From: an uncultured archaeon
GTDB taxonomy: Archaea > Asgardarchaeota > Thorarchaeia > Thorarchaeales > Thorarchaeaceae
Reading direction: 5' to 3'
Length of the DNA stretch: 64,000 bases
Assembly: GCA_964473825.1 (NCBI GenBank)
Contig: CAYYQL010000002.1
Span: 32,001-96,000, forward strand
In this document: in pieces, positions 35,349 to 53,935 of the stretch
Position numbering within the stretch: position 1 is the stretch's first letter
How the letters are laid out: the number at the start of each line of letters is the position of its first letter
The notes under the pieces: model-generated
Database searches by the model: none
Told to the model about the DNA's origin: nothing
What the model saw: the letters and a program-made list of their open reading frames with translations, nothing else
Position numbers and translations under genes: made by a program

Positions 35349-35425
35349 GGGCCGATGGCTCAGCCCGGTAGAGCGACAGGCTCTTAACTTGTTGGTCGCG
35401 GGTTCGAATCCCGCTCGGCCCGCCA
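35349..35425 (+). tRNA. tRNA-Lys(CTT), intronless
   Basis: GGGCCGA...ACAGG-CTCTTAA-CTTGT...GCGGG-TTCGAAT-CCCGC-TCGGCCC-G-CCA. Confidence 0.95.
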
Positions 35426-35470
35426 CCTGTTCTTCAGGAGGTACTCCTCACTTCCAATTGTTCTCCGTAA

Positions 35471-35560
35471 TTGATGGAACCCAATACCTGCTAAGCCACC
35501 AGTCGTTGATTGTCTTATGGACTAGCTGGTCCTCCCAGCAACGACACTGGGTTTTCTCAT
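35471..35560 (-). ncRNA. Candidate omegaRNA/reRNA 3' scaffold and IS200/IS605-type right end
   Basis: Inverted repeats 35499-35508/35539-35550 and 35525-35539 overlap the tnpB stop; minus-strand TCAA at 35474-35471. Confidence 0.35.
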
Positions 35561-37678
35561 ATCAACTTCAATGATGTTCCGCGCCGCGTTGACATCAGCA
35601 TGGAAGTATGCAGCGCAGTTCTCACAGTAGAAGTATTCCCCGCCCTTGTACTCCTCTGTCGACCCTTCGCACTTCACCCTCACCCCTGTCTCCCCGCAGA
35701 TGTGACATTTTCGAGATGTCCATGCTGGACTCACCGTCCAGACGGCGCCGTAGCAATGCCCAAGAGCCTGACGCATATACCGCACGGTCTCAAGCACCTG
35801 TGACCACAGGTTGAACGACAACCGCCAGGATAGGTCCCCGTAGCCCTTGGGCGGCTGGTAATTCTTCAGATTCTCGAAGTACAGGGTCTTGACTCCGTGC
35901 CTCTCGCAGAACCAGACGGCCCTTGAGGCAATCTGCCGAGCTATCTCACGATCGAGTCGTCGAACCTTCTTCCAGATGGCATCCAGATGTCGCTCCTTCT
36001 TCCTGAGGGGGCCGGGTCGAGGATAGTCTTTATCGTGCTTGCGCTCCCAGTTGTTGCGCATGAGAGCAACCCGTGAGGAGAGCGCCTTTGTCTGATGCCT
36101 GAGGAGGTTGCGTTTCCTCACCAGCTCGTCAAGAGAGACAAGCTCATCCACGTAACCCTGACCGTTCCGCACCGAGAGCACGATGGGCACACGGATGCCA
36201 CGATCTGCACCGGCCTTCCGCGTATACTCGCGTTCCCCAATGACTTCATCGACCATCTCCTGAGTGGGTGGGAGGAAGGGTATGTCCAGGATGACCCGGT
36301 GACCACGCAAGAGCAGAGCGGGTGGACCACAGGTACGGGACTCCCTGAGTCGCTGCACCTTCTCCTTCAGTTGTGCCAGCTTCTCGGGGTCGGCGTTCTT
36401 GCGGTTCTTCCATCTGTTCAGCTGATAGACGGCATGCTGAAGCTCGATGGTGTTGGTCAGCTGCTCGTGCTGGTCCTCGTATTTTCGTGCTCGAAAGCGA
36501 AGTTTCTTTGCTCTCAGGTGCTTGCCCTGAGCCTCCGCCTCCGCTGCCCTTACTCTGTCCTCTCTTGCGGCCCGGGGTAGCCAATCAAGGAAACGAAACG
36601 CAAGAGTCCGCGTCTTGTATGGAGAGGTCTCATGTGTTTCTCCCTCCATGTGCTCAGGGAGCTTCAGGAAAAAGAGGATCTCATCTTCCCTGTTGAGGTC
36701 CCGAGAGTACCAGTATCCTTGACTGGGAGTGTTCTCCGTGCTGGCAGAGAAGTCCTCCGTATGGGAGTACATCCTGGGAGTGGCGAAGGGGTAGCCCTTC
36801 TTGTGCCAGTGACGGAGCCGCCACTTGGCAGTTGTAAGGATGCCTTTTGCTGTCTGTTCTTCCTTGAGATACCTGCGAATCCGTCCCCGCTGGTAGGGAC
36901 GAGTCCCAAGCGGTTCTCCTCTCTTCTCGAGAATCGAGTGGTCCAGTCTCCGGCGGAGCTGCTTGAGGACCGAGAGGCTGTAGTAGAAGCCTGTCCCGTT
37001 GTTCTTGGTGGACTCACACGCTGCTCGGACTGCCTTGGTCAGGTCGCTTGCGATGTACCGGTTCTTCAGCAGCCGGATCAGGTCGGTCTCGTTCTCACAG
37101 AGATACTCGATAGCTGTCTTCATCAGCTGTCGTCGCAGCCAGTTGGACTGGATGATGCGCGCAGCATGCTCCAGCGCGTTTCGATACAGGCGTTCGAAGC
37201 ACTGCTTTTGGATCTCAGGGTGACTCCTGTATCTCACAGAGTCCTCGTTCTTGAGAAGAGCGTAGCCCTGTCTGGGATACGAGGCCAGCTCCTCGCCGAG
37301 AAACGCAAACCGTCCCTTGTCAGCATACACTCGTTCAAGAACCTCGTTCACCAGTGAGACAAACGTCTCGAAATAGGAGCCAAGAAGAGAGAGGTCGATG
37401 TTGTTGACCTTCCGCCCGGTGGCTGCGGAGAGGCGCTCCTGAATCGCAGCAAGTTCACCCCTTCGGAATCGTGGATCTGGCCCCCTTCCCTTCCCCCTCT
37501 TGTTCACCTCGCGATGAACGGAGCAGAGGGAGAACTTGGAGGTCAGGTACTTCAGACCCGTACCGTGGTGCGTTGTTGATGTGACCGATATAAAGTTGTC
37601 ATCCATTGTCTGTTGCTTCTCCGAGGGATCCCTCGTAGCATGCTCCCGGGGATGACGCCGGGCTTCTTTCGTCATCAA
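35522..37678 (-). CDS. tnpB: Large TnpB/Cas12-like RNA-guided RuvC nuclease (718 aa)
   Basis: RuvC-I AGADRG, RuvC-II LYFENL, TSRKCHICG...FYCENC zinc ribbon, RuvC-III HADVNAARNI. Confidence 0.88.
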   Translation of the reverse strand: MMTKEARRHPREHATRDPSEKQQTMDDNFISVTSTTHHGTGLKYLTSKFSLCSVHREVNKRGKGRGPDPRFRRGELAAIQERLSAATGRKVNNIDLSLLGSYFETFVSLVNEVLERVYADKGRFAFLGEELASYPRQGYALLKNEDSVRYRSHPEIQKQCFERLYRNALEHAARIIQSNWLRRQLMKTAIEYLCENETDLIRLLKNRYIASDLTKAVRAACESTKNNGTGFYYSLSVLKQLRRRLDHSILEKRGEPLGTRPYQRGRIRRYLKEEQTAKGILTTAKWRLRHWHKKGYPFATPRMYSHTEDFSASTENTPSQGYWYSRDLNREDEILFFLKLPEHMEGETHETSPYKTRTLAFRFLDWLPRAAREDRVRAAEAEAQGKHLRAKKLRFRARKYEDQHEQLTNTIELQHAVYQLNRWKNRKNADPEKLAQLKEKVQRLRESRTCGPPALLLRGHRVILDIPFLPPTQEMVDEVIGEREYTRKAGADRGIRVPIVLSVRNGQGYVDELVSLDELVRKRNLLRHQTKALSSRVALMRNNWERKHDKDYPRPGPLRKKERHLDAIWKKVRRLDREIARQIASRAVWFCERHGVKTLYFENLKNYQPPKGYGDLSWRLSFNLWSQVLETVRYMRQALGHCYGAVWTVSPAWTSRKCHICGETGVRVKCEGSTEEYKGGEYFYCENCAAYFHADVNAARNIIEVDMRKPSVVAGRTS

Positions 37679-37873
37679 CAGTACACCTCTCTCTTGTGTG
37701 GCTCAGAAGTTATAATCTCATAATCCGTTATAAAGTTACCAAGCAAGATTGCTTCTTGTCGGCTTAAAAGGATTATTAGGCTTTTTTACTTAAAATAAAG
37801 GCTTATGAGAGAATTTTGCTTCTTACAAATAGTCTAGAATATCTATATAAATAACCATGACCAATGGATAGAA

Positions 37874-40800
37874 GTGTCGCGTCTAGGGAGTTCAGGGAAA
37901 CCAAGCCAGATTCTGGCCCAATCAGTCATGACTGGGCTTGCTGCCTTAGTCAGACTGGCGCAGGCTCGAGGTAACTCCCAGACCCAGAAGTATGTCAACT
38001 CCATGACTGAGGTCTGGACTAGTGCGAAGAAGGAGCTGAAAGAAAATCAGGTCTTGAGCCCCCATGACTTCTCTTCTGTCCAGAATATCGAACATCTCTT
38101 GCGTCAGAGGTGGCTGGACATAATCTGGCACAGCACGAAACGGTACGGCAATCGTGAGTTCAAACGGATATACAGCTGGCGAGAGGGAAGTGTGGGTCCA
38201 CTGAATGGTCTACTGAACTATGCGGGAGCTCGTCTCCGAGATCTCGCTACAACTCACTACTCCTTTCCCGACCCGCAGCACTATCTCATCTTGCAGTACT
38301 CTGACGGTATCAAGACAGTCGTGCCTCAATCAGCCATATCAGAGGATGTCCCTAAAGATGTCGCGAAGAAGTATTGGCGAGTCGGCTATTCTGGTGACTC
38401 CAAGAGTCCACGTTTCTTGCTCTCACACCCTACACTTCCAGAACTCGATTTCGTAGACATGATCCGCGGACACGTACAAGAGCTCTGCCGACAACTCTTC
38501 ATCTACAACGTTCCGCGAAACGAGGCCCACCGATACATCCGCCTTCTTGTTCACAGACTCAAGCCCTTCCTGGACTGGTTCTATTCTCAAGGCGAAATAG
38601 GGCGAAAGGACTTCTATCCCGATGGAGACAGAGAACTGAGGGATATTGTACTCGAGGTACGGGCCGTGTATGGGCGTCGGGCTGGTAGACGAGAGCGTCT
38701 TTCCGACCAACTTGAGTGGAAAGACACGGCCCCTCTCACAGTAGAGTTCCTCAAGGCTCATGCAGAATCACTCTGCAATGGCTCGACATCGGAAGAGATC
38801 AGGGATGCTTGTGATAAAATCCTCGGCTACATCAATTCGGAGTATATTACCGAGCCTGACTTGCAGAAGCTCGAGGACCAGATTTCTGCCATCAGCCAAC
38901 GCGAGGGAAATGACTGGCACCGGGTGCTTCTCTCAGTCTTCCATCATCCGCGATCTCTGAAGTCGGTACTGTTCGCCGGGGACTCGATGTTGGAACGCCC
39001 TACAGACAGACAGTTCTTCGCTGAGGTGCCCATCCGTTCAAACACGGGCCATGGCAAGGCAGACTTGGTGCTCTTTGTTCGACGAAGTGTTGGACAGCGC
39101 ATGGTCTGGACTCCCGTAATGATTCTCGAACTCAAGACGAAGACCGCCTTCGACTACAACCTATACTGGATGCGACCACGGACGAAGAAGAACTACTCTG
39201 TTCCGGTGTTACATGGCTGGAAGACACGACTGACGCCCAAGGATTGGTCGACCATATCGACCTCCCTGCCCATCAAACGGACACGTGAACAGCTGGCGCT
39301 CTATGAGAAGATACTCCTTCGTGAGTACAGACAATTAGTACCTCAGGATGCATTTGCTCCCCGTGAGCTATGGAAGGGTGTCGTCATTGTTGACACGGCA
39401 GAGAGCTACGGGTCGATATTGGATGCTCTTGAGGGGATGCTTTCCAGCCTCCAGGCAGACCCAGCAGGCTTCGTTTCTACAATGGGGTGGACCTCTCACA
39501 GGTTCAAGAAGTCGGGAGGAGGTGACCGAATAGCCCTCCTCAAATCTCCCTGTTCGGGGCCCGTAGGCGTACTGCGAGAAGCTGTCATGGCAGATAAGAT
39601 CAAGTTAGACGATCCCTTTGAGCATCGGATCGCTGACGAACGCACTCTCACGCAGTATATCTCTGTTTCCTCAGCCACCTCTGGAGGAAATGCCGCTGCA
39701 TGGCATGCAAAGAACTGGCACCTCTTACATCACATTGACGAAGTCGTGGAACAGTGTCCCTCTACTGCCTCCGTCTGGTGGCTTGACTTGTTGGGAAGTC
39801 TTCCTGAACATCTGCGTAAACGGCGTTTCGGCCTGGACGACAAGTCATCGGATTTGCTCGAGAATATCACGTTCCTAAATCTGAGCAATGAGGTCGAGTC
39901 GTTTCTCAAAAGGAAATCAAACATCGTGCAGAGCCTTACCACCATCCCTGGGCCGGATAAGACAGAACACGTAATCATCATAGATGGCTGGGCGGACCTG
40001 AACCGGATGACTCCAACCTTGCAGAAGGAACGGCTCTTAGCTCTCGAATACGCTATCCTTGATACACTACCTGACAGGAATGTCAACATCATCTGGGTGG
40101 ATAGTGGCGTGAAAGGCACAAGGATGAACGAAACCTACCAACGGCCGTGTCTTGATGTTCTGCCCTATGACTCTCCTAGGCGTTTCCAGTTGGATGAGGT
40201 CATCTGGAATATACCCACTGCTCCCAGAGTATTCGGGTGGCAGACTCCCTATGCCGATGAGAAACGGATAATCGTTCAAGATACACCGACGAGTGCTCCT
40301 CCTTGGACCACTATGATTGAGGTGCCCATCCTTAGGAAGTGGGCGCGGAAGTTTAGGGGCGGCCCAAAACGCGACAAGATAGTGGCCGAGGAAGTCATCA
40401 TGGAAGAGCTAGTCACTACGCAGTCGATGTACGGACGAAACATAGTACTCGGGGACATCCAAGGTACAATCTCCTACCTCACAGAACAGACAGTCCAAGA
40501 TCTCCAGGCCGAGGCGATGACTGTCTCGCCGGCTCTTCTTCGCCCGAGGGACGAAGAAAGCATTGCCTTGGTGGCTGAACCGGAGAGCAAAAAGCACTCT
40601 TTCTCTAGTCGGTTAGTAGAGAAGGCTGAGGGGACATCGCTAAGAGAACGACTTCATCTCTGTCCGATTCATCCGCCTCCTAGTCCAAAACGAGCAACTG
40701 AAGCAAAGATGTATGCAAATCCTCTGGGTATCCCACGTCACTGGTATCACAAGACAGAGAGAGAAACTGAGGCTGAGAAACACTACACAAGGAAACCTCC

Positions 40801-42541
40801 CCTCTACGGGAAGAGTGAACTGATCTTTCTTGATAGTCCCACTGCGCGCAGGAGGGAGATCAGACGGTTACGAGATGCGGCGTGGTTTCTGAAACGCCTG
40901 TTCCCTGTGCATGACGACATGCATGGCCTGTGTGGACAGGTGTATTCACTCTGTGAAGACGCCCTAGATAATCCTGATGAGCCTGATAGATATGTTGGCG
41001 TACTTCTCCAAGTCAGAGACCTCATCATCCGTCATCCCAGCCGAGCTCGGGCTTGGCAATTGATTGAGCCGTATCGCGAGTTGGTAGGGGAGGTTCTCGG
41101 TGCGGAGAATCGTCTGCTCCTTGCCGATATCCGCCGTGAGAATCCAGATATCCTTTCCCTATATGGGAACAATCTCCTCATGGGAATCATGGCTGCATTG
41201 GCTAAGACGGTTCGTGATGAGGGGCACTCGGCTGCGATTTCCCTCTGGGAATCTGTGGTTGAATGGCTACCGTATCAGATGGGATTCGCCCCGGTTCAGG
41301 CATCTCAGGAGAGAATCCAGTCAGTGTACGACTTTCAGACGATCTTCGCAAATCTCCTCTCGCGTGCGGGATACCTTACAATGAAAGACCCCCAAGTGGA
41401 AGACCATATGGACGAGATAGCCTTGCTGCCCGCCATCTATAGGCCAGGGCTTCTAGTGGGCAAAGAAGACCATCTTTGGTTCCTCTTCGAACGCCCAGAC
41501 GGTCAAGCTGTCTGTGGTCTTATGAGAGAAAGACAGGAGAGGTTACGTTTGGGATTCCAGTGGTGTTCGAGCAATCCAGCAGAACTCAGTGATAGTGCAC
41601 AAGAGCTGCTTGACGCATCTTGCCTTTGGATCGAAGAGTCACTAGCCGTGACCAATGTAGGCGGTCAAGAGATTCTATGGGGATGGAGTCATGATGAAGA
41701 TGAATGGGGGCTCGTTGGCAGACTTGACTACGGAAGCCACCAAGATTCAGAGGGGGTCCCCTCTCTCTTGTGGGTTCGGCTCTCCCCTCTTTCTATGAAA
41801 ACGACACTTAATCTAGAAGAGTGCCCCATTGGAGCACCCATACACAGTCTTGAGAGATTTCATCCAGTGCTGGAGAGGCTTGCGGGGCAACAGCATAGAG
41901 TGATATCTGTCACATGTGAGGTGACCGTGGACTTGAGCCAAGAAACCTATGTTGTCAGGTGCAAATCATCACGGGAGCTGTATCACGAGTTCCTAACTCC
42001 GCGAACCAAGGAGGTTGTGGCTTTTCTTCGGTCAACTGCCCTCAATGGGCGCAGTGTCACTAACGAAGAGGGCGCAATCCTGACATGGGACCACCTCACT
42101 GATATTGAATATGGGTATGCTGGAAGCGGAGAGGAATGGTTCAGCCTCTCATTTCTGAAACCGCTGGTGCACCGCAGTCGTTTCTTCGAGAGCTATGCCT
42201 ATCCGGAGAATGCGGAACATCTTCTCTCTGCACAAATGGGTCCCCCCGTGACCATGCACATCTGTTATGATAAGGGAATCATGGTTATGCATCGGTTCCT
42301 ACATCCTGTACTTACTGTCAGGTTAGATGGTCTGCCCGAGAATTCACATCTGAAGAAACTTGAGGGGGAAAGAATGAACATCTATGACGTGGCCTTGCTT
42401 GCAGAATTGGAGCAGTTGATAGATATTTCAACAGGATCAATCCATCCTCTAGAGTTTGATGTGACTGCAATCACTAGCGTAGGATTGCCCGTGAAACTTG
42501 AAACCAGTCGCCTTGCCAACCTTCTTCTGTATAGAAGGTGA
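37874..42541 (+). CDS. 1555-aa protein with PD-(D/E)XK nuclease domain and possible degenerate RecA/KaiC-like domain
   Basis: AEVPI...GKADLVLF...ILELKT...EQLALY; later SSATSGGN...VWWLD...VIIIDGW. Confidence 0.65.
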   Translation: MSRLGSSGKPSQILAQSVMTGLAALVRLAQARGNSQTQKYVNSMTEVWTSAKKELKENQVLSPHDFSSVQNIEHLLRQRWLDIIWHSTKRYGNREFKRIYSWREGSVGPLNGLLNYAGARLRDLATTHYSFPDPQHYLILQYSDGIKTVVPQSAISEDVPKDVAKKYWRVGYSGDSKSPRFLLSHPTLPELDFVDMIRGHVQELCRQLFIYNVPRNEAHRYIRLLVHRLKPFLDWFYSQGEIGRKDFYPDGDRELRDIVLEVRAVYGRRAGRRERLSDQLEWKDTAPLTVEFLKAHAESLCNGSTSEEIRDACDKILGYINSEYITEPDLQKLEDQISAISQREGNDWHRVLLSVFHHPRSLKSVLFAGDSMLERPTDRQFFAEVPIRSNTGHGKADLVLFVRRSVGQRMVWTPVMILELKTKTAFDYNLYWMRPRTKKNYSVPVLHGWKTRLTPKDWSTISTSLPIKRTREQLALYEKILLREYRQLVPQDAFAPRELWKGVVIVDTAESYGSILDALEGMLSSLQADPAGFVSTMGWTSHRFKKSGGGDRIALLKSPCSGPVGVLREAVMADKIKLDDPFEHRIADERTLTQYISVSSATSGGNAAAWHAKNWHLLHHIDEVVEQCPSTASVWWLDLLGSLPEHLRKRRFGLDDKSSDLLENITFLNLSNEVESFLKRKSNIVQSLTTIPGPDKTEHVIIIDGWADLNRMTPTLQKERLLALEYAILDTLPDRNVNIIWVDSGVKGTRMNETYQRPCLDVLPYDSPRRFQLDEVIWNIPTAPRVFGWQTPYADEKRIIVQDTPTSAPPWTTMIEVPILRKWARKFRGGPKRDKIVAEEVIMEELVTTQSMYGRNIVLGDIQGTISYLTEQTVQDLQAEAMTVSPALLRPRDEESIALVAEPESKKHSFSSRLVEKAEGTSLRERLHLCPIHPPPSPKRATEAKMYANPLGIPRHWYHKTERETEAEKHYTRKPPLYGKSELIFLDSPTARRREIRRLRDAAWFLKRLFPVHDDMHGLCGQVYSLCEDALDNPDEPDRYVGVLLQVRDLIIRHPSRARAWQLIEPYRELVGEVLGAENRLLLADIRRENPDILSLYGNNLLMGIMAALAKTVRDEGHSAAISLWESVVEWLPYQMGFAPVQASQERIQSVYDFQTIFANLLSRAGYLTMKDPQVEDHMDEIALLPAIYRPGLLVGKEDHLWFLFERPDGQAVCGLMRERQERLRLGFQWCSSNPAELSDSAQELLDASCLWIEESLAVTNVGGQEILWGWSHDEDEWGLVGRLDYGSHQDSEGVPSLLWVRLSPLSMKTTLNLEECPIGAPIHSLERFHPVLERLAGQQHRVISVTCEVTVDLSQETYVVRCKSSRELYHEFLTPRTKEVVAFLRSTALNGRSVTNEEGAILTWDHLTDIEYGYAGSGEEWFSLSFLKPLVHRSRFFESYAYPENAEHLLSAQMGPPVTMHICYDKGIMVMHRFLHPVLTVRLDGLPENSHLKKLEGERMNIYDVALLAELEQLIDISTGSIHPLEFDVTAITSVGLPVKLETSRLANLLLYRR

Positions 42542-42926
42542 GATTCCTGTTGCTGGAATATTGGAGTCGGACTTACCCGTCCGTTTCGCCTATCTCATCA
42601 ATGAACGAGTAATGTGGATTGTTTGCCCAGAAGCGTACCTCTCAACTTCATGTGGCCAATGATGGTTCTCGATATATGCTTGCCAACATCGAAAGAAAGG
42701 TTATCAGGAGTGATCTCTTTGCGTGATTGAGATAGCATGTATGGCATGTGCGCTAGGTGGATTGATAGCCGTCATAAGATTGGCGATGTAGTTATTTCGA
42801 TTAGCTCGCGGAATGCCAGACAACTTGCAGACACGTGGCATCTGAAACCCAATGGCTAGCCTAGGATATGATTGGTATGCGGTGGAACCCTCATCAGTTT
42901 GTCTTCTTGTGTGGTTCAAGGGAGGA

Positions 42927-44729
42927 ATGGTTATGAAAGGAACAGAAGAAGTGTTTCGCCAGCGCCAGTACTTCGAGTTTGTTGCTCATATGAAATGGGG
43001 CTGGGAATTCCAGCATCTCTTCGAGCGGTTGATGATGAGAACTGAACCCGGCTTTATCCCAGTTAGACCACAGGGACGCTTAGGCGATTGGAAATGCGAT
43101 GGATACTCACATCGGACAAGTCGTTTCTTTCAAGTATATGCCCCAAGATTCACCAAGTCAAAGGTAGCCGTACAAAAAGCAGAAGAAGACCTTGTTTATG
43201 TACTCGAAAACTGGCCTGAAGATACAGCTCCATTACGCGAGTGGATTTTTGTATACGGCCATCATGATGTATATCCTGCTCTACGTACAGAGATTCTCAA
43301 GATTGCCCAGAATCGTGGTATCAAAATCATCGAGTGGAACCTACAAGATATTTGGAACAAGTTTCTGGAACTGAGTCGAGATAGTCGTCTAGCGGTACTA
43401 CAGATGCCCGGAGAATGGCTCACCGATGATAGTAGAAAGCTCGACCAGATACTTTCTAGATTGCCAGAAGCCCAAGGAAAAGAAAGCCAAGAAAAGAAGT
43501 CTTGGACATCTGTCCCCATACAAAGCACGCCGTCATACAGGGTGACCATAGATGAAACAAAGGGAGTTGATGGCACATTATGGTTTTTGTTCGAAATGGG
43601 GATCGAGGTGAAAGAATTCCTGGTTGAATCTTTGGACAAAATTCATCGGGAATTCAATGAATTATGCTCTTGGGGGAGAAATAAGAGCTTCCAGTGGCTT
43701 CACCGATCCAATGAAACCCTCTTGAAGGGGCATTACTGGCGTGATGATATTGGGTTTCTAACCACAACTCACATCAGAAAGCTGTCCAGTGCATCCTTTG
43801 AGCTGAGTTGTTCTCTTTCTAGAGCATTGGATGGTCACTGGCTATCGCAGTCACTTGTCGGGCTTCTTGGTAAGACCCCTGTTTTCCCTCTTGAGGAGAA
43901 TACGATAGTAGATGGCGGGAGAATTCTCATCAAAGATCCAAAGAAACCCCATCTAACGATTTTGGTGAATCTGAAAGACCTCTATGCTGGGATGATTGCC
44001 AATCCGAAGTACGAAATCAATTTTCAATCAACAGATGCATCTATAACTGAGTATTGTACATCCTCAGGTCAGAGGGTATTATCCTTCCATATTCGTTCTA
44101 ATCTAGGCAGTTTTGAAAGAATCGCTCAGATAATAGGGCCTAATGTAATTCAGCCAAGTGAAACGACTTCTTCAGATGTTAGAGCTTTCGACGTAGGTTG
44201 GAACGGAGACGGTCTTGAGATTCGGATATGGATTAACGCAGCGGAACCTGATGGATGTATTCAAGACTGCACATGTTGTCCCCTATTCTTGAAGGGCTGT
44301 AACAACGCCCATTATTGGCAATCGGTAAATCTTAAACACCTCACAGAGGAGCTCGAGTATGCATCTGTGTTTCTGCCGGCTGATTCTGAGGCGGAGCTAT
44401 TAGAGTTGGTTCGAGAAGAGATGAGTGACACCTTGCGAGTCATCTTAGGCAAGAAGGAAAGGGAAAAAGTTTCATCGCTGTTCAGACAGATAGCAGATGC
44501 TCGCGCGAAATTGAATGAACAGTTCTCGAAATTGCTAGATTACTGCCGACGAATACACCTGATGACCCCAAGAGAGCGCCGAAATGTATCTGATCTTGCA
44601 CGGGTTGTAAGGCATCGAATAGAGCGAGGCGGCAAGTTAGCAGATCCTCGCGTTATTGGTGCGAACCCAAAGTACATGGATTTGGAAACGTTTGATTGTC
44701 TAATGGAGGACTACGGCGTCGTTTTCTAG
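42927..44729 (+). CDS. Protein with N-terminal restriction endonuclease-like domain (Cap4/ABC-3C-like); possibly truncated by a TAG
   Basis: FQHLFERLM...QGRLGDWKCDGY...FFQVYAP; frame stays open 91 codons past the TAG, to 45005. Confidence 0.6.
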   Translation: MVMKGTEEVFRQRQYFEFVAHMKWGWEFQHLFERLMMRTEPGFIPVRPQGRLGDWKCDGYSHRTSRFFQVYAPRFTKSKVAVQKAEEDLVYVLENWPEDTAPLREWIFVYGHHDVYPALRTEILKIAQNRGIKIIEWNLQDIWNKFLELSRDSRLAVLQMPGEWLTDDSRKLDQILSRLPEAQGKESQEKKSWTSVPIQSTPSYRVTIDETKGVDGTLWFLFEMGIEVKEFLVESLDKIHREFNELCSWGRNKSFQWLHRSNETLLKGHYWRDDIGFLTTTHIRKLSSASFELSCSLSRALDGHWLSQSLVGLLGKTPVFPLEENTIVDGGRILIKDPKKPHLTILVNLKDLYAGMIANPKYEINFQSTDASITEYCTSSGQRVLSFHIRSNLGSFERIAQIIGPNVIQPSETTSSDVRAFDVGWNGDGLEIRIWINAAEPDGCIQDCTCCPLFLKGCNNAHYWQSVNLKHLTEELEYASVFLPADSEAELLELVREEMSDTLRVILGKKEREKVSSLFRQIADARAKLNEQFSKLLDYCRRIHLMTPRERRNVSDLARVVRHRIERGGKLADPRVIGANPKYMDLETFDCLMEDYGVVF

Positions 44730-45024
44730 GCGATTTGCTCAGACACTGATGGAGTTCTGCAACTGTTTCGAGGAAGACCATTCAAGGAAAATCGGGAATA
44801 TCTGAACTCCCTCCTTCCCTCCATTGCGGAAATAAAGGACCAGTATCTTGGACATTCCACAGAGCTATCGTACATTACAAGTTGTACGCCAGAGATAGTA
44901 GATTACGACTCGCTGGGCGTTGATTTTCTACTGGCAAATTCGTTGGGCCTCATGAAGAGTGGAGGCAAGATAGACAATTCCTCTTGGACTTTCGACAGAG
45001 ATTAAAGTGGTTGGGTTCAGATAA

Positions 45025-46638
45025 ATGTCGGAATGCCAGAAGAAATTCTTCTTTCAGATCATGTGGGGAGTAGTAATGACGAAATCCCAGTTCATTGTAG
45101 AATATACACATCCACGGTTTGCAGCAATCATGCCAGCGGAACAAATCTTGACAGTTGGAGATTTGGATGGCGATTTATGGCACTTCTCTGATGGCGATAT
45201 AACAACGGCAACTTTCTCCGATTTAGTACCTCCAGGTTCGGAACAAGGCTACGTTGGCTCGCTGTCTATCAGCCTTGTAGGTCTTGAGGTTCCAGAGATT
45301 GTGTATGAGTCTACTCGGCGCATAGATGTAACCGATATTGGCAGCTATCTGTTGCCTCTTCCTACAGCGAAACTGAGAGCAGAAGTCACTCTTGTGGATT
45401 TGGACAAGAGAGTCCTCGAAACCCTTAGATGGTATAGAACTGTCGCATCTGAGAACGGGATTGGCGCGCCACAGGCATCTATTGATGAGATGATTGAGAA
45501 ACTAAAAGAATGCTTCATAGAAGACCCATCTCGATTGCCTGAGATGCTGTCAGAGTATCAGCAAAGCGAAAGGCGTTTCAGGTTCCTTGCGAGGAAAGCA
45601 CGGGAAGACCCAACATCACAAGCAGTCGATGCTTTGCTGATTGAAAGACCTCTAGATCCCCTCGGTATGGGTAGCCAGATTGTTAGGGAATTGCCCGGGA
45701 TTATAGAAGCTTTGGATCCTCAGTCTCAACAAGAAGCGATAGATATGCTGGATGATTTGAAGAGAAGAATCCTGTCAACATCAATTCAGAAGCCTGACAA
45801 TTCAGAAGAATACGATGTTGCATTGCGACTGAGAGAAAGCCTCCGGATTCAAAAAGCGCTGCGAAAGTTTGAAGACGAAAGTACGAGACTGCCTAACAAC
45901 GTTGACCCGGATGCAACAAAGCAGTTTGCATTTGATTTCTTTCATCTACTAATGCATTACTGGAATAACGCAATCAGATATCTCAAGTACGAGAAGTCAC
46001 AGCATTGGATGAGGGAGTATCCAGAGTATGCAGCCGGTCTTTTCTATGTCAGAAATCGTGTTTCACTGGACGGCGAACACATTCTCCCGCATGTAACAGC
46101 TCACGTTAGGCAGGAGGTCCTTCGTCATAATCTGATCCAGAGAAGAGAATGGAAGGAAATCGTCCAAGCAACAAGTGACGCAGCACGCCTTGAGAGATAC
46201 ATGCTAGACTGGACGGTTGAGGGTATCCTCTCCCAGGCCCTCTCACATCTCACAAAAGGAGAGCTTCTTCCGCCGATTGTATTGGGGGGAGTTGCTCTAG
46301 AGGAGGCGATGACCAGAGCGCTGTTTCACGTGAATCCCGACGATTATGACAAGAGGGGATTGGGTCTGAAGATAAAGGACGTCCATAGAATGATAGGACG
46401 CGAAGCTCTTGGGTATGAGAAGAGTCAGTGGAAGAAGGACTGGAATCTCCTAAACAAGGGCTCAAAGGAGGAGGGGACGGGATTGGTTCAGATCAGGACC
46501 AGACTGCAACACCCCCAGATTGGATTAGAGAAGAACATCCCTTCAAGGAAAGATGTTGCTGAAATGATTCTGGCTTGCCAACGAATGTGCAATGCTTTAC
46601 TCAAATACGATCGTCACAGGTGTAGCGAACTTGCCTAG
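45025..46638 (+). CDS. Protein with C-terminal HEPN-like domain
   Basis: GGVALEEAM helix and R-x4-H motif IRTRLQHP near the C-terminus. Confidence 0.55.
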   Translation: MSECQKKFFFQIMWGVVMTKSQFIVEYTHPRFAAIMPAEQILTVGDLDGDLWHFSDGDITTATFSDLVPPGSEQGYVGSLSISLVGLEVPEIVYESTRRIDVTDIGSYLLPLPTAKLRAEVTLVDLDKRVLETLRWYRTVASENGIGAPQASIDEMIEKLKECFIEDPSRLPEMLSEYQQSERRFRFLARKAREDPTSQAVDALLIERPLDPLGMGSQIVRELPGIIEALDPQSQQEAIDMLDDLKRRILSTSIQKPDNSEEYDVALRLRESLRIQKALRKFEDESTRLPNNVDPDATKQFAFDFFHLLMHYWNNAIRYLKYEKSQHWMREYPEYAAGLFYVRNRVSLDGEHILPHVTAHVRQEVLRHNLIQRREWKEIVQATSDAARLERYMLDWTVEGILSQALSHLTKGELLPPIVLGGVALEEAMTRALFHVNPDDYDKRGLGLKIKDVHRMIGREALGYEKSQWKKDWNLLNKGSKEEGTGLVQIRTRLQHPQIGLEKNIPSRKDVAEMILACQRMCNALLKYDRHRCSELA

Positions 46639-46857
46639 GAGACCCCTTTGGTCCTTCGGTGTCTTCTAACATAGATGAGATGTGAATCAGGAAACGAGTT
46701 TGTTCCTGTTGAAATATTCTACATGCTGATCGCAGGCGATAGATAGAAATCAGTGTAACTATTCATATTCGTTTGAGTAGGAAGGGGATGTCAGAACAAA
46801 CGAAACAGAATCTCAAGCGACTGCTAAGAACCATAGAGAATCGAATCGTTTAGAGAT

Positions 46858-48075
46858 GTGCAAGTTTCACTTGCGGTTTTTACCCCAAGAGAAGAGGATC
46901 CGCAATTTGTCTATTCAATAGTACGATTCCTCAATCACGATGAACCTCATAGGAACGAGCTATACGACTGGGATAGATTCAAAGTAATTCACACTGTCAT
47001 CAGCACCGACGATGCAAAGAACCTGATTGAGCGATTATTCAATGAAAACGTCTTTGTCTTGAGAGATCGGGATTCCACGGAAGAACGAATGCTAATTCCC
47101 ATGGAATGCAATCTTCATGATATTCGTGATGTTGGAAGTCAAGAAAGCTATGGCTATGCGAAACACGATTGGCCGTCACTCTTTGCAATAGCTGATGCTC
47201 GAAACGAACCCTCTGGAGAGATATGGCATTCCTATCTATGTGCCATTGGACAGCCTCTGTTTCCGAGTGTGCAAGAGGGAGTCAGAACACTCTTTGGTTT
47301 CAGTGTTGACGAGAAATGGGGAATCAGAAGTAGGTTGGAAGTAGTCGTACCGGACTTCCGGGCGAGAATCAGGAACTTCGTGATTGAGGGCATAAGAGTA
47401 CGAATCGAAGTAGATGTAGAAAGACTGACGCTTGAAGATGTCCGGCTCAAATTATACAGCAAAGGCCGTAAGAAGCGATTCAATTCTGACGACATCAGAC
47501 TAACCGGCAACATTCACACTTGTACACTTGATGAGGAACCCGTGATGCTTGAGGCGTGTATACTATCTGTAGTTGACGGCAGTCTTGTTGATAGAGTGAG
47601 TTATGATAGGCGATACCCTTCAGGGATCACACCCCTCAGAATGTATGACACTCGTATGGCTCTAGGTCTAATCTCTGAAGGTGAGAATAGACATGTAGAG
47701 TTCAAAGAGAAACTGAATACCCAAAACCCCTATGAGTTTCTTGAGAGTGTTGTGGCATTTGCCAACACCAAAGGGGGGCAAATTCTTTTGGGCGTTAACG
47801 ATAGAGGTGAAGTGAGAGGCATAAGAAAGGACTACTCGGAAACCATAATCAATCTGATTCATTCCCATATGAATCCCCCCATCGAACCGAACATTCAGCA
47901 CGGAATAGTCATAGAGGGGCGGGAGATAACAATCGTTGAAATCCCGGAGGGCGGTGCAAAGCCCTATTGGCTCAAGAATCATGGATCTTATGTCAGAAGA
48001 GGGGCTACTGACAAACCCATTTCGAGAACCGAAGCAGAGCAATTATTCAAGAATCGAGCTGGAATAGACTTCTAG
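46858..48075 (+). CDS. Protein with C-terminal Schlafen/AlbA_2 domain
   Basis: GENRHVEFKE, VAFANTKGGQILLGVND, YVRRGATD; true start may be 46788 with a frameshift near 46845. Confidence 0.85.
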   Translation: MQVSLAVFTPREEDPQFVYSIVRFLNHDEPHRNELYDWDRFKVIHTVISTDDAKNLIERLFNENVFVLRDRDSTEERMLIPMECNLHDIRDVGSQESYGYAKHDWPSLFAIADARNEPSGEIWHSYLCAIGQPLFPSVQEGVRTLFGFSVDEKWGIRSRLEVVVPDFRARIRNFVIEGIRVRIEVDVERLTLEDVRLKLYSKGRKKRFNSDDIRLTGNIHTCTLDEEPVMLEACILSVVDGSLVDRVSYDRRYPSGITPLRMYDTRMALGLISEGENRHVEFKEKLNTQNPYEFLESVVAFANTKGGQILLGVNDRGEVRGIRKDYSETIINLIHSHMNPPIEPNIQHGIVIEGREITIVEIPEGGAKPYWLKNHGSYVRRGATDKPISRTEAEQLFKNRAGIDF

Positions 48076-48167
48076 TTCCATCTATGACTTTGGATATGAT
48101 GCCGAATATTCCTATACGCGCTCTGCACCAAAATCTGACTATTGATTTCTTTTGCGTCCCTTTTCTT

Positions 48168-48968
48168 CTAAGGGTGCCAATATCTTGCGCTACACCTTTT
48201 TCTGTAACGGAACGCCCACTTTTGAAGGCCTGAGGGCAATGGTTCAAGTGAGAAGTAGGAATGGTAATAGCTATTGCATATGGTGAAATCGAGAAACTGA
48301 TCGCATGAGGGGCAGCTGATTTCAAGACCGTCACATCGTTGGGACATGTGAGCAGAACTTGCCCGAATGTTGAGAATGGGAATATCGGATTCAATGTAAA
48401 TCTCAGTTCCACAGAAAGGACATTTGCCCACGACTTCAATCCAGCCATAGGGTTCCCAATCTAAAATAGGTCCAGAGGTGTCAGTTTCCGCATCTATCCA
48501 AGGGTTGATTTGTTCATAGACTGCTTCTGCTGTACGAAAGATGGCTTGAAGATCATCATCGCTTTGGAGTCTACTAACGAACCGATCAAGATCACAAATC
48601 ATACCTTCATCCCGATAAATCAGGTCCATCATCGCACTCTTGGCGCATCCTGATTGTTCAGTGGTTACATAGCTCTTTACGAGTTCGAAGTGATCGTAGA
48701 CATCCAAACCCATTTGGTTCCCTCTTCCCTTCAAGTAGCCAAGTTTAGCCATCGCACTTGCCTTATTCTCGAACATGCTCAAACCAAGTATGACTCTATC
48801 GATCTGGCTCCTATCAGATTCATATCCATGAAACTCAAGGAACTGCTGGTAGGCAACAACGCCGTGCTCAAAGGGCCATTGAGCATTCCAGCCTACGTCC
48901 GGAAATGGGAGGGCGACTACTGAGAAATCATTGGAATAGGCATCTGGGAGAATTTGTGCTAGTGCCAT
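48168..48968 (-). CDS. Hypothetical protein with C-terminal zinc ribbon
   Basis: CPFCG and CPSCD pairs. Confidence 0.55.
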   Translation of the reverse strand: MALAQILPDAYSNDFSVVALPFPDVGWNAQWPFEHGVVAYQQFLEFHGYESDRSQIDRVILGLSMFENKASAMAKLGYLKGRGNQMGLDVYDHFELVKSYVTTEQSGCAKSAMMDLIYRDEGMICDLDRFVSRLQSDDDLQAIFRTAEAVYEQINPWIDAETDTSGPILDWEPYGWIEVVGKCPFCGTEIYIESDIPILNIRASSAHMSQRCDGLEISCPSCDQFLDFTICNSYYHSYFSLEPLPSGLQKWAFRYRKRCSARYWHP

Positions 48969-49099
48969 ATGGGGTAGAGTGAATGTGTCTTCTCCGGGAG
49001 AATCGCCCTTGGAAACTTACCTCCCCCCCTTGTGTTCAACTCGTACAACAGCGCATTGATTAGCCGAGTTTGCGTTGAACCGTGAAACGGAGTGGCAAC

Positions 49100-50096
49100 T
49101 ACTTCCCCCACAAAATCTCGATGAAACATCGGTCGTAGTAATCCTCAATTGTGTCGGCCATATCAAAGGTGACCATGTTTTTCAAGCTCAATTTCTTCTC
49201 TTCCGCCTCTCGAAGGGCGACCTTGAGAAAAGTTAGGCTGTTTCCACATTGCTCTTCAATTCCTGAAGCCAGTCAAGGCACTCGTCACCGCTTGACCAAG
49301 GCATATCATGGCTTTGCCTTTGACAATACTTTGTGACTATTCCCTTTGCTGTCTCCTCAAATGCGGTTTCCTCTAGAAGAAAAAACACAATCTCATCTGT
49401 ACATCTCTCTCTGGATGGTCTTCTTCGCCAATCCTCTTCGTCTGCTCTAACACTTGCATTTGTACAACGAGCTATGAAGGGCACATGGATGCCATCTCCA
49501 AACCAATTCTTCTTCTCTGTCAGTAGATGCAGAAACAACTTCGTATCAAAATGCACGTTGTCGATAATTGCCAGTGCTTTTGCCCTTCCGAAAAAAGGCT
49601 CGGAAAGCGATTCGAATACTTGGTGGAGCCTCTGTGCAGGATTAGAATAACCTCCAGAAGCTGCAGCCCAGTAGAATACGAAGCTCCAATCATTCTTTTC
49701 GGTCAGAATACGATAACCAAGATGCTGTGCCAGCGTAGTCTTCCCCAGTCCAAGAAGAAACCTTCTCGGCCCGAGGTGGCTTTCCATTCCTCATTCGTTT
49801 CAAGCCCTATATGTTTCTCCCGAAACTGCGTAAGTAGGGCAGTTTCCTGTTTGAAAAGCATTACTGTCACATGAGAGATTGGCCATAGAGACCTCGATTA
49901 ACCCCTCACCGGCCCACTCGTTCGCCTCTTCTCGCTTTCTGGTTATAGAGATTTCGGAATACTCTCTTTCAAAATCTACAGCATAATCGCGAGAGTTTGT
50001 GTGGACGCCCATGATTAAGAGAACTCTTCGATGACTACAAGATAACACAAGTGAAGGGATTTCAAGGTATTCGGAAAAGACTTTATTGAAACGCAT
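49100..50096 (-). pseudogene. Decayed P-loop (STAND/NACHT-like) ATPase
   Basis: GLGKTTLA (Walker A remnant) and AIIDNVH (Walker B) within fragmented ORFs; boundaries approximate. Confidence 0.5.
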
Positions 50097-50111
50097 CCCT
50101 TAGTAGATGCA

Positions 50112-51359
50112 GTGGCAGAGGGGATGAAACTTATGGATGTCGAGAAGCTTCTAAGAAAAGGTGAGTCTCAAGAGGTTGAATTCAGAATTAAGTACGACAA
50201 GTCGCGAGAGGGGCGAAGGAACTTGGCCGACATAGTTGCTGCCTTTGCAAATACTGATGGTGGGACCATCATCTTCGGGGTTGAGGACAGTGGTGAGGTC
50301 GTTGGTTTGCCGCTATCCGACATTGATCTTTCACAAATCAAGAACCATATCGAATCATTTCTTGATCCCGTTCCTGAAATCCGATTCAGATTTGAAACGT
50401 TTGAGAAAAAACGGCTTGGAATTATCGAAGTCGACAAATCGAAACAGACTATTACATCTCGAGGTGGCAAACCACCGATACGAAGAGGGACAGCCACGGT
50501 ATACAAGGACGTAGAATACATCTACAAATCACAGAGGGAGGCGCAAAGACGTGCTATGTTCATCATGGTTGCCATCACATCAGTACTGATGGCTCTTGCT
50601 CTAGGTTTGATAGAAACGATTCTTGTCGGAGTATCAATCCGTTTCTTAATGACTATTATGATGTTCACCGTGGGCTTTCTACTACCCCTTGGCTACTCTT
50701 TGATTAAGGCTGAAACGAAATACTCAGCTGAAGCCTCAAGAACTAGAATCCATGCCTTTCTAGGGAAATCAGCACCGCTCGTTGCCATGTTTATTGTGAT
50801 TCTTGAGTTTGCTATTGCATATGTGTGGCTGTCATTTGGCATGAGCCAGCTTGGGTTTCTAACACTATCAAATCTAGCGATGTATCTTATTCTGGGCGCG
50901 ATTGACTTGGTTCCATCGAACAGACTGGCCCAGTGGTCTGGCCTGTTTTTAATTGCCATTCTAGCAGGATTCAGCCTAGCGACAATGCAAGATGCAGAAA
51001 CTCTTCCTAGCATCGTTGTTGAGCTGAGCGGTGTCTTTGTTGGCCTTCTTGGTGCGTTCTCACTGGGCGAAACTTGGAAGGAGATTGAGAACAGAAGAAG
51101 GGGTCGAGATTTAGAGCTACTACTAATCGAGGAGTTAGACTCGATTCAAAACTCCATTCTCCAGAATACGAACCAATCGTTACAATATCCCATATGGGAT
51201 GCAATAACCTCAGGAGGTGACCTGCTATCTATTCGCGGGGTTATGGTGACGAAACTGAGTAGAGCGTATCAAGCCATATCAACATACATCTCTCAGCCGA
51301 CGAGAGAGAACAAGAACACAGTCTTGAACCTGATCTCCGATTTGACCAGATCCAATTAG
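50112..51359 (+). CDS. Schlafen/AlbA_2 domain fused to a multi-pass membrane domain
   Basis: GESQEVEFR, AAFANTDGGTIIFGVED, IRRGTAT, followed by ~6 TM helices. Confidence 0.85.
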   Translation: MAEGMKLMDVEKLLRKGESQEVEFRIKYDKSREGRRNLADIVAAFANTDGGTIIFGVEDSGEVVGLPLSDIDLSQIKNHIESFLDPVPEIRFRFETFEKKRLGIIEVDKSKQTITSRGGKPPIRRGTATVYKDVEYIYKSQREAQRRAMFIMVAITSVLMALALGLIETILVGVSIRFLMTIMMFTVGFLLPLGYSLIKAETKYSAEASRTRIHAFLGKSAPLVAMFIVILEFAIAYVWLSFGMSQLGFLTLSNLAMYLILGAIDLVPSNRLAQWSGLFLIAILAGFSLATMQDAETLPSIVVELSGVFVGLLGAFSLGETWKEIENRRRGRDLELLLIEELDSIQNSILQNTNQSLQYPIWDAITSGGDLLSIRGVMVTKLSRAYQAISTYISQPTRENKNTVLNLISDLTRSN

Positions 51360-51527
51360 TCCACTAACGAAATAGTCAGAAACCTCATTCTCTTACCCAT
51401 TCAACTAATACTTCCTAGGCCATCCTTATCTTCTCCTTTACCGTTTATGTCTTGAAGTCTACTGAGGAGTTGAATCTCATCACTGGTGTTGCTTATATGA
51501 CTCCCTTCCATATCATAAGCGGTCAGA

Positions 51528-51965
51528 ATGGTCGACGAAGATTCACAGGGCGAATCAACGAATATGCGTAACAATATCGCGGTTGCTATGGCAATTCTAT
51601 CTGGTCTAGGATCAATCGGTTCTCTTATCTTGAATCTCTTGGATGCCTCGGGCTCCGTGGGTGCCGCGGCTCTTTGGTTCCAAGCATTCGCAGTACTTAC
51701 AATCCTCCTTGCAGTTGCGTTCATGAGTATGGAATGGGACCTGAGGAGAAACAAATGGCCGGGAATAGAAGAAAGGTACATGCAGTCAGACCTGCTTACC
51801 ACCGTTCCTCATCCCGAATCCACTCCTCAAGCCCTTCACCGAATGCGTATCGAAACGCTTAGAAAAAGAAAGAGGTTGGCTTTGGCAGAAGGGAAACAAC
51901 AACTTGCTGATCAGTATCAATCTGAAATAGATGAGGCAAAGAAGCATCTCAATCACGATGAATAG
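51528..51965 (+). CDS. Small 2-TM membrane protein
   Basis: Two hydrophobic helices plus a helical C-terminal tail. Confidence 0.6.
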   Translation: MVDEDSQGESTNMRNNIAVAMAILSGLGSIGSLILNLLDASGSVGAAALWFQAFAVLTILLAVAFMSMEWDLRRNKWPGIEERYMQSDLLTTVPHPESTPQALHRMRIETLRKRKRLALAEGKQQLADQYQSEIDEAKKHLNHDE

Positions 51966-52007
51966 CAATAGGCCTAGCGATAGGCTATTGACTTGTAGAA
52001 GTTTGCT

Positions 52008-53624: not shown

Positions 53625-53935
53625 TTACATCCGTCCCATAGGCTCAAACAGGCATCATTCTGTTTTATGGAGATTGCGGTGCCTACTCTGCATTGTGTCG
53701 GTCGGATAGGGCCATTCACCATAGCAAGTCACGTGATATTTTGGAGTCGAATGTCTGCCGATAGACTTGGAGCCGCTAACGATACCTTGTCTTCTTAGAT
53801 GATGGAAAATCACCTTCAGAATTTGTCCAGACTGCATCATCCTTGACAGAAGGGGCACACCAACAATGATGATTGCCGCCCGACTCAGAACGGCTGGTAA
53901 GGCGAGAGCTGTGCAGTGAGTGAGAACGAGGATGT

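Follow-up and report, generated by a model that had tools for sequence, protein, structure and literature searches.

The nearest described counterparts of the locus analyzed here are the 'Asgard Cas1s' (aCas1), which, in the sections of Altae-Tran et al. 2023 (PMC10691335) that deal with them, are associated with TnpBs of two Asgard-specific groups, named Cas1H-Asgard-1 and -2 (section 9 of that paper), and are proposed to act as transposases. The same sections describe, downstream of tnpB, a hypervariable segment that follows a conserved T and precedes a conserved GTTCACTCA, as well as several fixed, non-mobile TnpB lineages, and trace the aCas1 name to Makarova et al. 2020 (CRISPR J 3:156). 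Our subject is a pair of divergent genes, one encoding a 1555-residue protein (the giant gene and the giant protein) and the other a large TnpB, found in a 64,000-nucleotide stretch of DNA from an uncultured archaeon of the Thorarchaeaceae (assembly GCA_964473825.1, contig CAYYQL010000002.1, positions 32,001 to 96,000 of the forward strand). The whole of this stretch is referred to as the window, and positions are counted from its first letter. The abstract of the earlier study to which the aCas1 name goes back reportedly speaks of extremely diverged Cas1 homologues, distinct forms of Cas4 and likely new mobile elements.

We consider the window to hold a resident aCas1-TnpB mobile element of Thorarchaeota in which the giant protein would serve as a joining and processing enzyme and as the transposase, and we assign this statement, as a whole, a probability of about 0.5. 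Its parts differ in strength. That the window copy belongs to the aCas1-TnpB element family of Asgard archaea is highly probable, and the role of the giant protein as the transposase, taken alone, falls somewhat short of even odds. The conserved core of the element consists of TnpB, an RNA scaffold ending at the right edge, and the giant gene, which is divergent from a shared AT-rich spacer (Table 1). Copies of the element have sharp ends and lie at different sites, and the candidate catalytic residues of all three nuclease or integrase centers are conserved.

Table 1 Features of the aCas1-TnpB locus and its surroundings, in window coordinates.
Feature	Position	Strand	Description
tRNA-Lys(CTT), intact	35349-35425	+	Called by ARAGORN; 78 nt outside the end of the element on the TnpB side, convergent with tnpB
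Presumed built-in guide or target flank	35480-35502	-	Directly after the scaffold; related copies diverge abruptly here
Omega-RNA-like scaffold	35503-35720	-	Overlaps the tnpB 3' end; ends in ACAATCAACGA, the right end of the element
tnpB	35522-37678	-	718 aa; predicted active RuvC nuclease with zinc ribbon
Divergent spacer	37679-37873	.	195 bp, AT-rich; TATA-like boxes toward both genes
Giant gene	37874-42541	+	1555 aa, GTG start
Cas1-type alpha-helical catalytic domain	37874-38641	+	aa 1-256; predicted structure
Cas4/RecB-type PD-(D/E)XK nuclease	38684-39559	+	aa 271-562; predicted fold and motif residues
Middle domain, possibly a degenerate P-loop NTPase	39566-40753	+	aa 565-960; motifs
Helical domain, weakly like a second Cas1 catalytic domain	40802-41353	+	aa ~977-1160; predicted structure
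Beta-rich C-terminal domains and stop codon	41441-42541	+	aa ~1190-1555; model
Schlafen/AlbA_2 genes	46858-48075 and 50112-51359		Within a low-GC block
tRNA-Lys promoter and first ~9 nt of tRNA-Lys gene	49907-49975	-	7.4 kb from the giant stop codon

Comparison with described systems

As far as the source describes them, the aCas1-TnpB loci resemble ours in their Asgard host, in a diverged Cas1 homologue lying beside TnpB, in two groups of TnpB, in being a proposed transposon, and in a variable segment that follows a conserved T. Two types of locus are distinguished below, those with a TnpB of the 718-residue type (T718), to which the window belongs, and those with a TnpB of about 570 residues (T570). 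The GTTCACTCA motif is shared by the T570 class: as GTTCACTCA(C) it closes the scaffold in 11 of 13 T570 loci, lying ~100-150 nt after the tnpB stop codon in nine and just inside the reading frame in two, and the remaining two of the 13 carry one-base variants of it. Unlike the described loci, the 718-residue class of the window ends in ACAAT(G/C)A(A/T)CG(G/A), with no flanking repeats found; GTTCACTCA was not found near the window tnpB and occurs in the window at chance level. Given the shared GTTCACTCA, the two TnpB groups and the Asgard host, we equate the giant protein with the aCas1 of Altae-Tran et al.

Since aCas1-TnpB elements have already been catalogued computationally, although never tested at the bench, the window copy is a further case of a known element and does not make a new category. 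The useful additions are a domain map, exact ends, a natural target (the 5' region of tRNA-Lys), the swapping of partners and the minority presence of IS607 TnpA. In the parts of the PMC10691335 text that concern these elements we found no mention of a Cas4/RecB domain, of a missing Cas1 N-terminal domain, of a possible second Cas1-like domain, of partner swapping or of IS607 TnpA in some copies. An obligate coupling of a Cas1/Cas4-like protein with TnpB outside CRISPR arrays bears on the origin of the cooperation between RNA-guided nucleases and integrases, and on what TnpB does for a transposon.

Four other systems invite comparison. IS607 transposons (TnpA, TnpB and an omega RNA or reRNA) likewise have a scaffold laid over the 3' end of tnpB with a guide just outside the right end, and no terminal inverted repeats (TIRs) or target-site duplications (TSDs), and four relatives of the window copy carry a bona fide IS607 TnpA. 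They differ from the window copy, in that neither this copy nor its genome has an intact recombinase, in the 4.7-kb gene placed divergently upstream of tnpB, and in the size of TnpB (718 residues in the window as opposed to about 400). Casposons, which combine a Cas1 casposase with a family B polymerase, are also archaeal mobile elements with a Cas1-type catalytic domain and often lie beside tRNA genes. The window unit, in contrast, has two genes only, no polymerase, no TIRs and no visible 14-15 bp duplication, and its giant protein is five times as long, has no N-terminal Cas1 domain and always occurs with a TnpB. The Cas4-Cas1 fusions of CRISPR adaptation (PDB 7mi4, 8d3l) hold both folds in one polypeptide and are among the structural matches, whereas in the giant protein Cas1 comes first, neither Cas2 nor an array accompanies it, there is no four-Cys cluster and the chain has ~1000 extra residues. 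To Tn7 (the PD-(D/E)XK nuclease TnsA, TnsB and the AAA+ protein TnsC) the likeness is by analogy only, both being site-directed and bringing together a restriction-like nuclease, an enzyme for strand transfer and a P-loop module. No homology is shown here. The strand-transfer domain of the giant protein is Cas1-like and not DDE, and its putative P-loop is without the Walker A Lys.

Domains of the giant protein

The giant protein was modeled with AlphaFold from family alignments in two parts, residues 1-570 (mean predicted local distance difference test score, pLDDT, of 85) and residues 880-1555 (mean pLDDT 77.5). Structures were compared by VIA-align against 48,161 chains, with Foldseek as a second method, and residue conservation was assessed over 41 homologues with identity down to 25%. 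For residues 1-256, the 12 best of the 48,161 chains were all Cas1 or casposase (8flj, 4n06, 4w8k, 7kft, 6qxf, 2yzs, 6opm, 7mi4, 8d3p, 7cr6, 5vvk and 3nke), with Z of 8.8-12.6 and a root-mean-square deviation of 3.6-4.2 Å over 147-185 aligned residues, while the best unrelated helical match reached Z 6.2. Foldseek agreed with Cas1 for this region (probability 0.82-0.98, E 0.015-0.1). The matched part (chain residues ~83-345) is the alpha-helical catalytic domain at the C-terminus of Cas1, and, as the matches begin at Cas1 residues ~83-115 with residue 1 of the model, there is no counterpart of the Cas1 N-terminal beta domain. Three residues, E73, H185 and D195, do not vary, D192 is conserved in at least 90%, and their order is that of the Cas1 motifs. 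Profile-profile alignment (hhalign) with 12 Cas1 proteins from Asgard archaea gave a weak match (E 0.035), which sets E73 on the catalytic Glu of Cas1 and PLNGLLNYAG on PVNALLSFGNSLLY. H185 and then LDFVDMIR, which holds D192 and D195, follow the Cas1 order of His...Asp/Glu, a placement made by eye and not by alignment.

Residues 271-562 match the PD-(D/E)XK nucleases, the Z values being 8.3 for the N-terminal domain of DinG, 7.7 for MGME1, 7.4 for Cas4 (8d3l_I), 7.0 for AddA, 6.8 for RecE, 6.6 for RecB and 6.4 for Cas4 SSO0001. E384, D397, K421 and Q473-x3-Y477 are invariant among the 41 homologues and E419 is at least 90% conserved. The four-Cys iron-sulfur cluster of Cas4 is not present, as only a single Cys lies between residues 330 and 570. 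On the predicted folds and these motifs, we take the giant protein to be a very diverged relative of Cas1 fused to a Cas4/RecB-type nuclease. Sequence searches gave nothing comparable: Pfam (including Cas1 PF01867), PADLOC and NCBIfam held no match for the giant protein, Pfam none for any of 41 members, and a profile search with the N-terminal domain among 1.84 billion representatives returned 130 proteins only, with no sign of canonical Cas1, all of which are family members or fragments as judged from their length and matched range. A profile search of PDB sequences yielded a lone intein match, at chance level, which was discarded.

The middle domain (residues 565-960) carries the motifs SSATSGGN and VIIIDGW, of which D704-G705-W706 is invariant in 41 closer full-length homologues. 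The Walker A pattern GxxxxGK[ST] was not found in it, the family consensus being SPTSSGxxAAW with no Lys in any member. Its neighbors by language model are all P-loop NTPases (AAA_22, NACHT, IstB), with scores of 0.75-0.79 that lie below the trust level, so that the domain is possibly a degenerate P-loop NTPase and this assignment should be taken only as a lead. Farther along, at residues ~977-1160, Cas1 or casposase chains make up eight of the 11 top matches with Z of 5.0-6.3, a range that helical bundles reach by chance; E995, Y1097, G1098 and L1101 are invariant and none of the His residues is. That this region is a second Cas1-like domain, probably inactive, is only a possibility suggested by the model. 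The beta-rich remainder is mostly modeled with pLDDT of 80-94, and for residues ~1190-1555 there was no structural match above Z 4.7, nor did Foldseek find anything for the C-terminal model.

These results bear on the original prediction, which was made from the sequence alone. Its RecB/Cas4-like core holds at the level of fold (Z 6.4-8.3) and of the invariant E384, D397, K421, Q473 and Y477, and the degenerate Walker A without Lys and the VIIIDG motif are indeed there. Its list of domains was nonetheless incomplete, as the Cas1-type catalytic domain of residues 1-256 had been missed, and the description of some 800 residues as being without a recognizable domain does not stand in view of the weak resemblance of residues ~977-1160 to a second Cas1 domain.

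Pairing with TnpB and distribution

The TnpB of the window appears to be an active enzyme. Its C-terminal 230 residues match TnpB/Cas12f models (NF040570, E 2.7e-15; PF07282, E 1.8e-10), its PADLOC matches are Cas12f/Cas12u, and both the RuvC triad (D493, E603, D695) and the four Cys of the zinc ribbon are kept in 15 of 15 relatives. A dead TnpB repressor of the TldR kind was rejected because the triad is intact. The candidate catalytic residues can be mapped for all three centers: E73/H185/D195 in the Cas1-like domain, D397/E419/K421 in the nuclease and D493/E603/D695 in TnpB.

Genomes are labeled G, contigs C and fetched loci L; G000 is the genome of the window and G074 that of a congener and sister species, in which L041 is the orthologue of the window copy and L042 and L043 are further copies. 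Seventeen loci were taken from 11 genomes that had matches to both genes, and in all 17 tnpB and the giant gene lie head to head. In a set of 29 best-per-genome loci, 20 seemed at first to be without TnpB, yet all 20 have a conserved divergent open reading frame (ORF) upstream. In the full sequences of 13 of these loci, the upstream ORF proved to be a TnpB of 545-589 residues (NF040570, E 1e-23 to 1e-28) from a second clade, nearly unrelated to the 718-residue type except for the zinc ribbon. A divergent TnpB is thus found in 44 of 44 assessable loci (20 T718 and 24 T570), one further locus, cut by a contig end, being outside this count. The two TnpB types are intermixed in the tree of the giant protein, the well-supported branches of which require a minimum of 5-6 switches from one type to the other. 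The giant protein is therefore tied to TnpB as a function, and not to one TnpB lineage, and the pairing is obligate. The two genes proposed by the original prediction are thus confirmed. Its notion of a co-regulated module, in which a large protein accompanies an RNA-guided one, is supported, and its own counter-case, in which homologues would usually occur without TnpB, is the opposite of what was found.

The 195-bp AT-rich divergent region is likewise confirmed, and has a GC content of 32%, compared with 57% and 52% for the two genes. Among 17 loci, the spacers measure 185-276 bp with 24-43% GC and share the conserved blocks TATAAAGTTATCAAG and TTATAAGT/TATATAAATA, and the TATA-like boxes are kept in relatives. 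We presume these boxes to be archaeal promoters. Within the first codons of tnpB, at 37645-37662, lies a GC-rich, palindrome-like block, CCCGGGGATGACGCCGGG, that is kept at the nucleotide level in the 17 loci while the proteins there are only 42-90% identical, so that, besides coding for protein, it may act as a signal in DNA or RNA.

Homologues of the giant protein form 64 clusters with 30-83% identity, all of them named 'hypothetical protein' and with Thorarchaeota as the source name. The gene is present in 55 of 87 genomes of the class, with up to 11 matches per genome, and in this set some matches carry internal stops and many sit at contig ends; it is absent from 9 of 24 high-quality genomes. 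A phylum-wide sample placed it in 43 of 70 genomes of one family and in 1 of 230 elsewhere. That sole outsider, G190, belongs to another family of the phylum and has matches to the N-terminal half on C389 and C565 (E 1e-69 and 5e-65), for which either transfer or contamination during binning could account. The family is patchy, multi-copy and pseudogenised, which rules out a core housekeeping gene; the giant gene is an accessory, multi-copy gene.

G000 itself has three paired copies, in the window, on C26 (with a 68%-identical TnpB) and on C6 (with a TnpB of 561 residues), and broken copies of the giant gene at contig ends on C39, C35, C15 and the end of C2. On C6 (L057, 13051-15162), a second TnpB-like ORF of 703 residues directly follows the paired TnpB. 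A solo TnpB of the same type as that of the window, with 728 residues and no giant gene, is found on C78 (L058, 2107-4293), adjoining the tyrosine decarboxylase gene mfnA, and a TnpB fragment of 35 residues lies just upstream of it.

RNA scaffold, element ends and mobility

In 15 T718 loci, a block conserved at the nucleotide level runs beyond the tnpB stop codon and closes with the terminal motif of this class, after which the sequences are unrelated; the next letter after the conserved end is usually a T. In the window, this right end, where the scaffold ends, is at 35503. Two hairpins just before the right end covary. The stem YCCAG/CTGGR has a C-G pair in seven sequences and a U-A pair in seven, and the stem GGAC/GTCC shows three double changes. 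We read the conserved block as the usual guide-RNA scaffold of TnpB, with the guide apparently taken from the flank.

Comparison of closely related copies defines the unit. L042 and L043, both from G074, are 92.9% identical over 7.2 kb and their similarity stops exactly at the stop codon of the giant gene, which marks the left end of the element in these copies. L042 shares 88% identity with the copy on C26 of G000, and the two part 2 nt beyond the scaffold motif, the end of which lies 31 nt downstream of the tnpB stop codon. The flanks of these three copies are mutually unrelated, and that of L042 is syntenic with C18 of G000 right up to the boundary, on the TnpB side only. Near-identical copies with sharp ends and different flanks indicate that the unit has moved. 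By these alignments, the mobile unit comprises two genes and an RNA, with a length of ~8.0 kb in the three copies and ~7.0 kb in the window. The original prediction had left the choice between a mobile element and a defence system that it did not name; the sharp ends and different sites speak for the mobile element, which can now be named as an aCas1-TnpB element.

Neither direct nor inverted repeats of any note flank the window copy. GTTCACTCAC was considered as a TIR and ruled out, as it does not recur downstream of the giant gene. The scaffold end reappears over 16 nt at 44692-44707, which was taken as chance, since the site lies inside an ORF and the match does not extend. As empty sites, C35 and the end of C2 of G000 were ruled out, both being further copies of the element broken by assembly. 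Two orthologous T570 loci differ past the scaffold: L068 (11020-11330) has an extra ~140-170 nt relative to L065 (5318-5394), which contains a second GTTCACTCAC unit, an inverted copy of it (TGAGTGAAT) and repeated AGGTCAT words, and L065 is without the second unit. Either a small insertion or a second guide unit could account for the extra stretch.

The tRNA-Lys target

The ~20 nt after the scaffold of the window copy resemble the 5' end of tRNA-Lys, and an intact convergent tRNA-Lys gene follows ~55 nt further on. This layout recurs in L041, L050 and L054 (called by ARAGORN) and in L051 (an uncalled tRNA-Lys-like sequence), and includes copies in which the giant protein is only 24% identical to that of the window. 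The guide-like flank has no other full match in the genome. The original prediction had suggested that homologues be examined for co-occurrence with large TnpBs and with tRNA genes. A divergent TnpB accompanies the giant gene at all 44 loci, and at 9 of 28 (6 of 15 T718 and 3 of 13 T570) a tRNA gene is found no more than ~300 nt from the end on the TnpB side.

On the other side of the element, the sequence at 49907-49975 matches both arms of an inverted repeat that brackets the G074 orthologue (L041), in which the same tRNA-Lys remnant lies only ~70 nt past the giant stop codon. From the positions of these remnants, it follows that the element interrupts a second tRNA-Lys gene near its start in this genus, and 49907-49975 is likely the other half of the interrupted target. 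In the window, a gain of ~7.4 kb of low-GC DNA has since separated the giant gene from the remnant, as part of a stretch of ~11 kb (~42.5-53.9 kb) with no counterpart at the G074 locus.

Proposed mechanism and alternative explanations

In the mechanism that we favor, the divergent TATA-type promoters of the spacer would co-express both genes. TnpB and its RNA would cut the unoccupied target, here the 5' part of tRNA-Lys, and such cutting would keep the element or copy it in, as in IS200/IS605/IS607. The Cas1-type center of the giant protein would join DNA ends and its RecB/Cas4-type center would trim them, with transposition or break-directed copying of the element as the outcome. The giant protein would work with TnpB and could serve as the transposase in the many copies without an IS607 recombinase, that of the window included. 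Its candidate catalytic residues are invariant, an intact TnpB is always paired and TnpA is sporadic, and the giant protein is therefore the only constant candidate enzyme.

Several points weigh against assigning this role to the giant protein and should be considered together. The Cas1 assignment comes from predicted structure and motifs, none of the sequence methods having led to canonical Cas1. Within a genome, most copies share no more than 70-75% identity, and the window copy is shared with the sister species G074, so that recent movement must be rare. The copy in the window lacks a defined left end, its homology with G074 ending at 42471, no TIRs or clear target duplication of the kind made by Cas1-type integrases were found, and no clean empty site was recovered. 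Most directly, an intact IS607 serine recombinase, TnpA, abuts the 3' end of the giant gene in convergent orientation in L044, L046, L047 and L048, remnants of IS607 TnpA are present in L045, L055 and L039, and TnpBs of the T718 type also occur in the ordinary tnpA-tnpB order (in G026, G027 and G039). The four intact proteins have a MerR-like helix-turn-helix and a serine recombinase domain, and score 155-182 bits against NF033518 (cut-off 110). The adjacent TnpA and the plain tnpA-tnpB order imply that the T718 lineage is of IS607 stock, with some elements built as tnpA/giant/tnpB, and the element type could thus be IS607-driven, with the giant gene as cargo.

This leads to the best of the alternatives, a non-autonomous IS607 transposon that is moved by a TnpA, its own or supplied in trans, the giant protein being cargo or an accessory that, for example, resects the break made by TnpB so as to favor recombinational copying. 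We hold this to be possible, though on balance doubtful. It accounts for the position of the four TnpAs (and the three remnants), which is the canonical left end of an IS607 element, for the plain tnpA-tnpB pairs, for a right end with scaffold and guide just outside, as in the IS605/IS607 design, and for the lack of any TIR or TSD found. It accounts less well for the rarity of the recombinase. TnpA was not found in the remaining T718 loci, nor in any of the 13 T570 loci examined, and is thus present in only four (with three remnants) of 44 loci; the full-length gene occurs in 18 of 87 genomes as opposed to 55 for the giant gene, and the high-quality genomes G077, G079, G076 and G061 each have 7-9 giant matches and no IS607 TnpA. 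G000, which is 95.7% complete, has no match to PF00239 (resolvase) or to PF01797 (Y1 transposase), and the window is without TnpA; the genus lacks an intact TnpA and nonetheless has copies of 88-93% identity at three sites. Nor would cargo be expected to stay paired with TnpB across swaps of partner with all of its catalytic residues invariant. As to the giant protein as the transposase or as an accessory to homing or repair driven by TnpB, the data do not decide between the two. A decayed ordinary IS607 element does exist in G000 (C1, 113702-114304), consisting of a 78-residue N-terminal piece of TnpA followed by the last 126 residues of a T718-type TnpB.

A domesticated, non-mobile module at the tRNA-Lys locus, in which an RNA-guided nuclease and its DNA-processing partner have a host function such as control of the tRNA-Lys locus or of invading DNA, is improbable. 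The synteny of the flanks that the window copy shares with its G074 orthologue, the T570 copies at orthologous positions in related species and the age of the copies within a genome (70-75% identity) would all fit such a module, as would the fixed, non-mobile TnpB lineages that Altae-Tran et al. describe (PMC10691335, in the sections cited above). They must be set against the patchy distribution, with absence from 9 of 24 high-quality genomes, the pseudogenes and fragments, the 88-93% identical copies at different insertion sites, and the solo TnpBs and breaks at contig ends that are typical of repeats.

Cas1 once turned a transposon into the memory of CRISPR, and TnpB is the ancestor of Cas12. 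A bolder and also unlikely idea makes the giant protein an 'adaptation' enzyme with Cas1 and Cas4 in a single chain, which would put a guide next to the scaffold or exchange it for a new one, or else insert the entire element at a site chosen by the RNA; if true, the archaeal lineage closest to eukaryotes would have, in this pair, a surviving intermediate stage between the TnpB of transposons and type V CRISPR-Cas. Least probable of all is the narrower form, an enzyme with a Cas1 center and a Cas4-type trimmer that writes or replaces the guide beside the scaffold, as a one-spacer proto-CRISPR that would serve in defence or in the switching of targets. CRISPR adaptation uses Cas1 and Cas4 as a pair and both folds are predicted in the giant protein with their active-site residues, the segment downstream of tnpB is hypervariable and bounded by repeat-like motifs in the part of PMC10691335 on these loci, and L068 has its second GTTCACTCAC unit and ~140-170 extra nt without an equivalent in the orthologous L065, but the window has no Cas2 or array, its guide resembles tRNA-Lys and not foreign DNA, and close T718 copies differ in everything past the scaffold and not in ~20 nt, the flank being ordinary syntenic host DNA, which argues for transposition and not for an exchange of spacers.

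Other features of the window

There are no tandem arrays in the window, and neither Cas2 nor a CRISPR array was found there. Relative to L041, the block that contains tRNA-Lys, tnpB and the giant gene is inverted (35349-42471 in the window, 7211-14333 in L041), with both flanks syntenic, and the G074 block is bracketed by a 36-nt inverted repeat that consists of two tRNA-Lys promoters. A block of low GC content (45-46%; 42852-53935), absent at the G074 locus, separates the giant gene from the syntenic flank on the right. It holds two ORFs of 625 and 537 residues without assigned function and the two Schlafen/AlbA_2 proteins, and looks like a later insertion of defence-like cargo.

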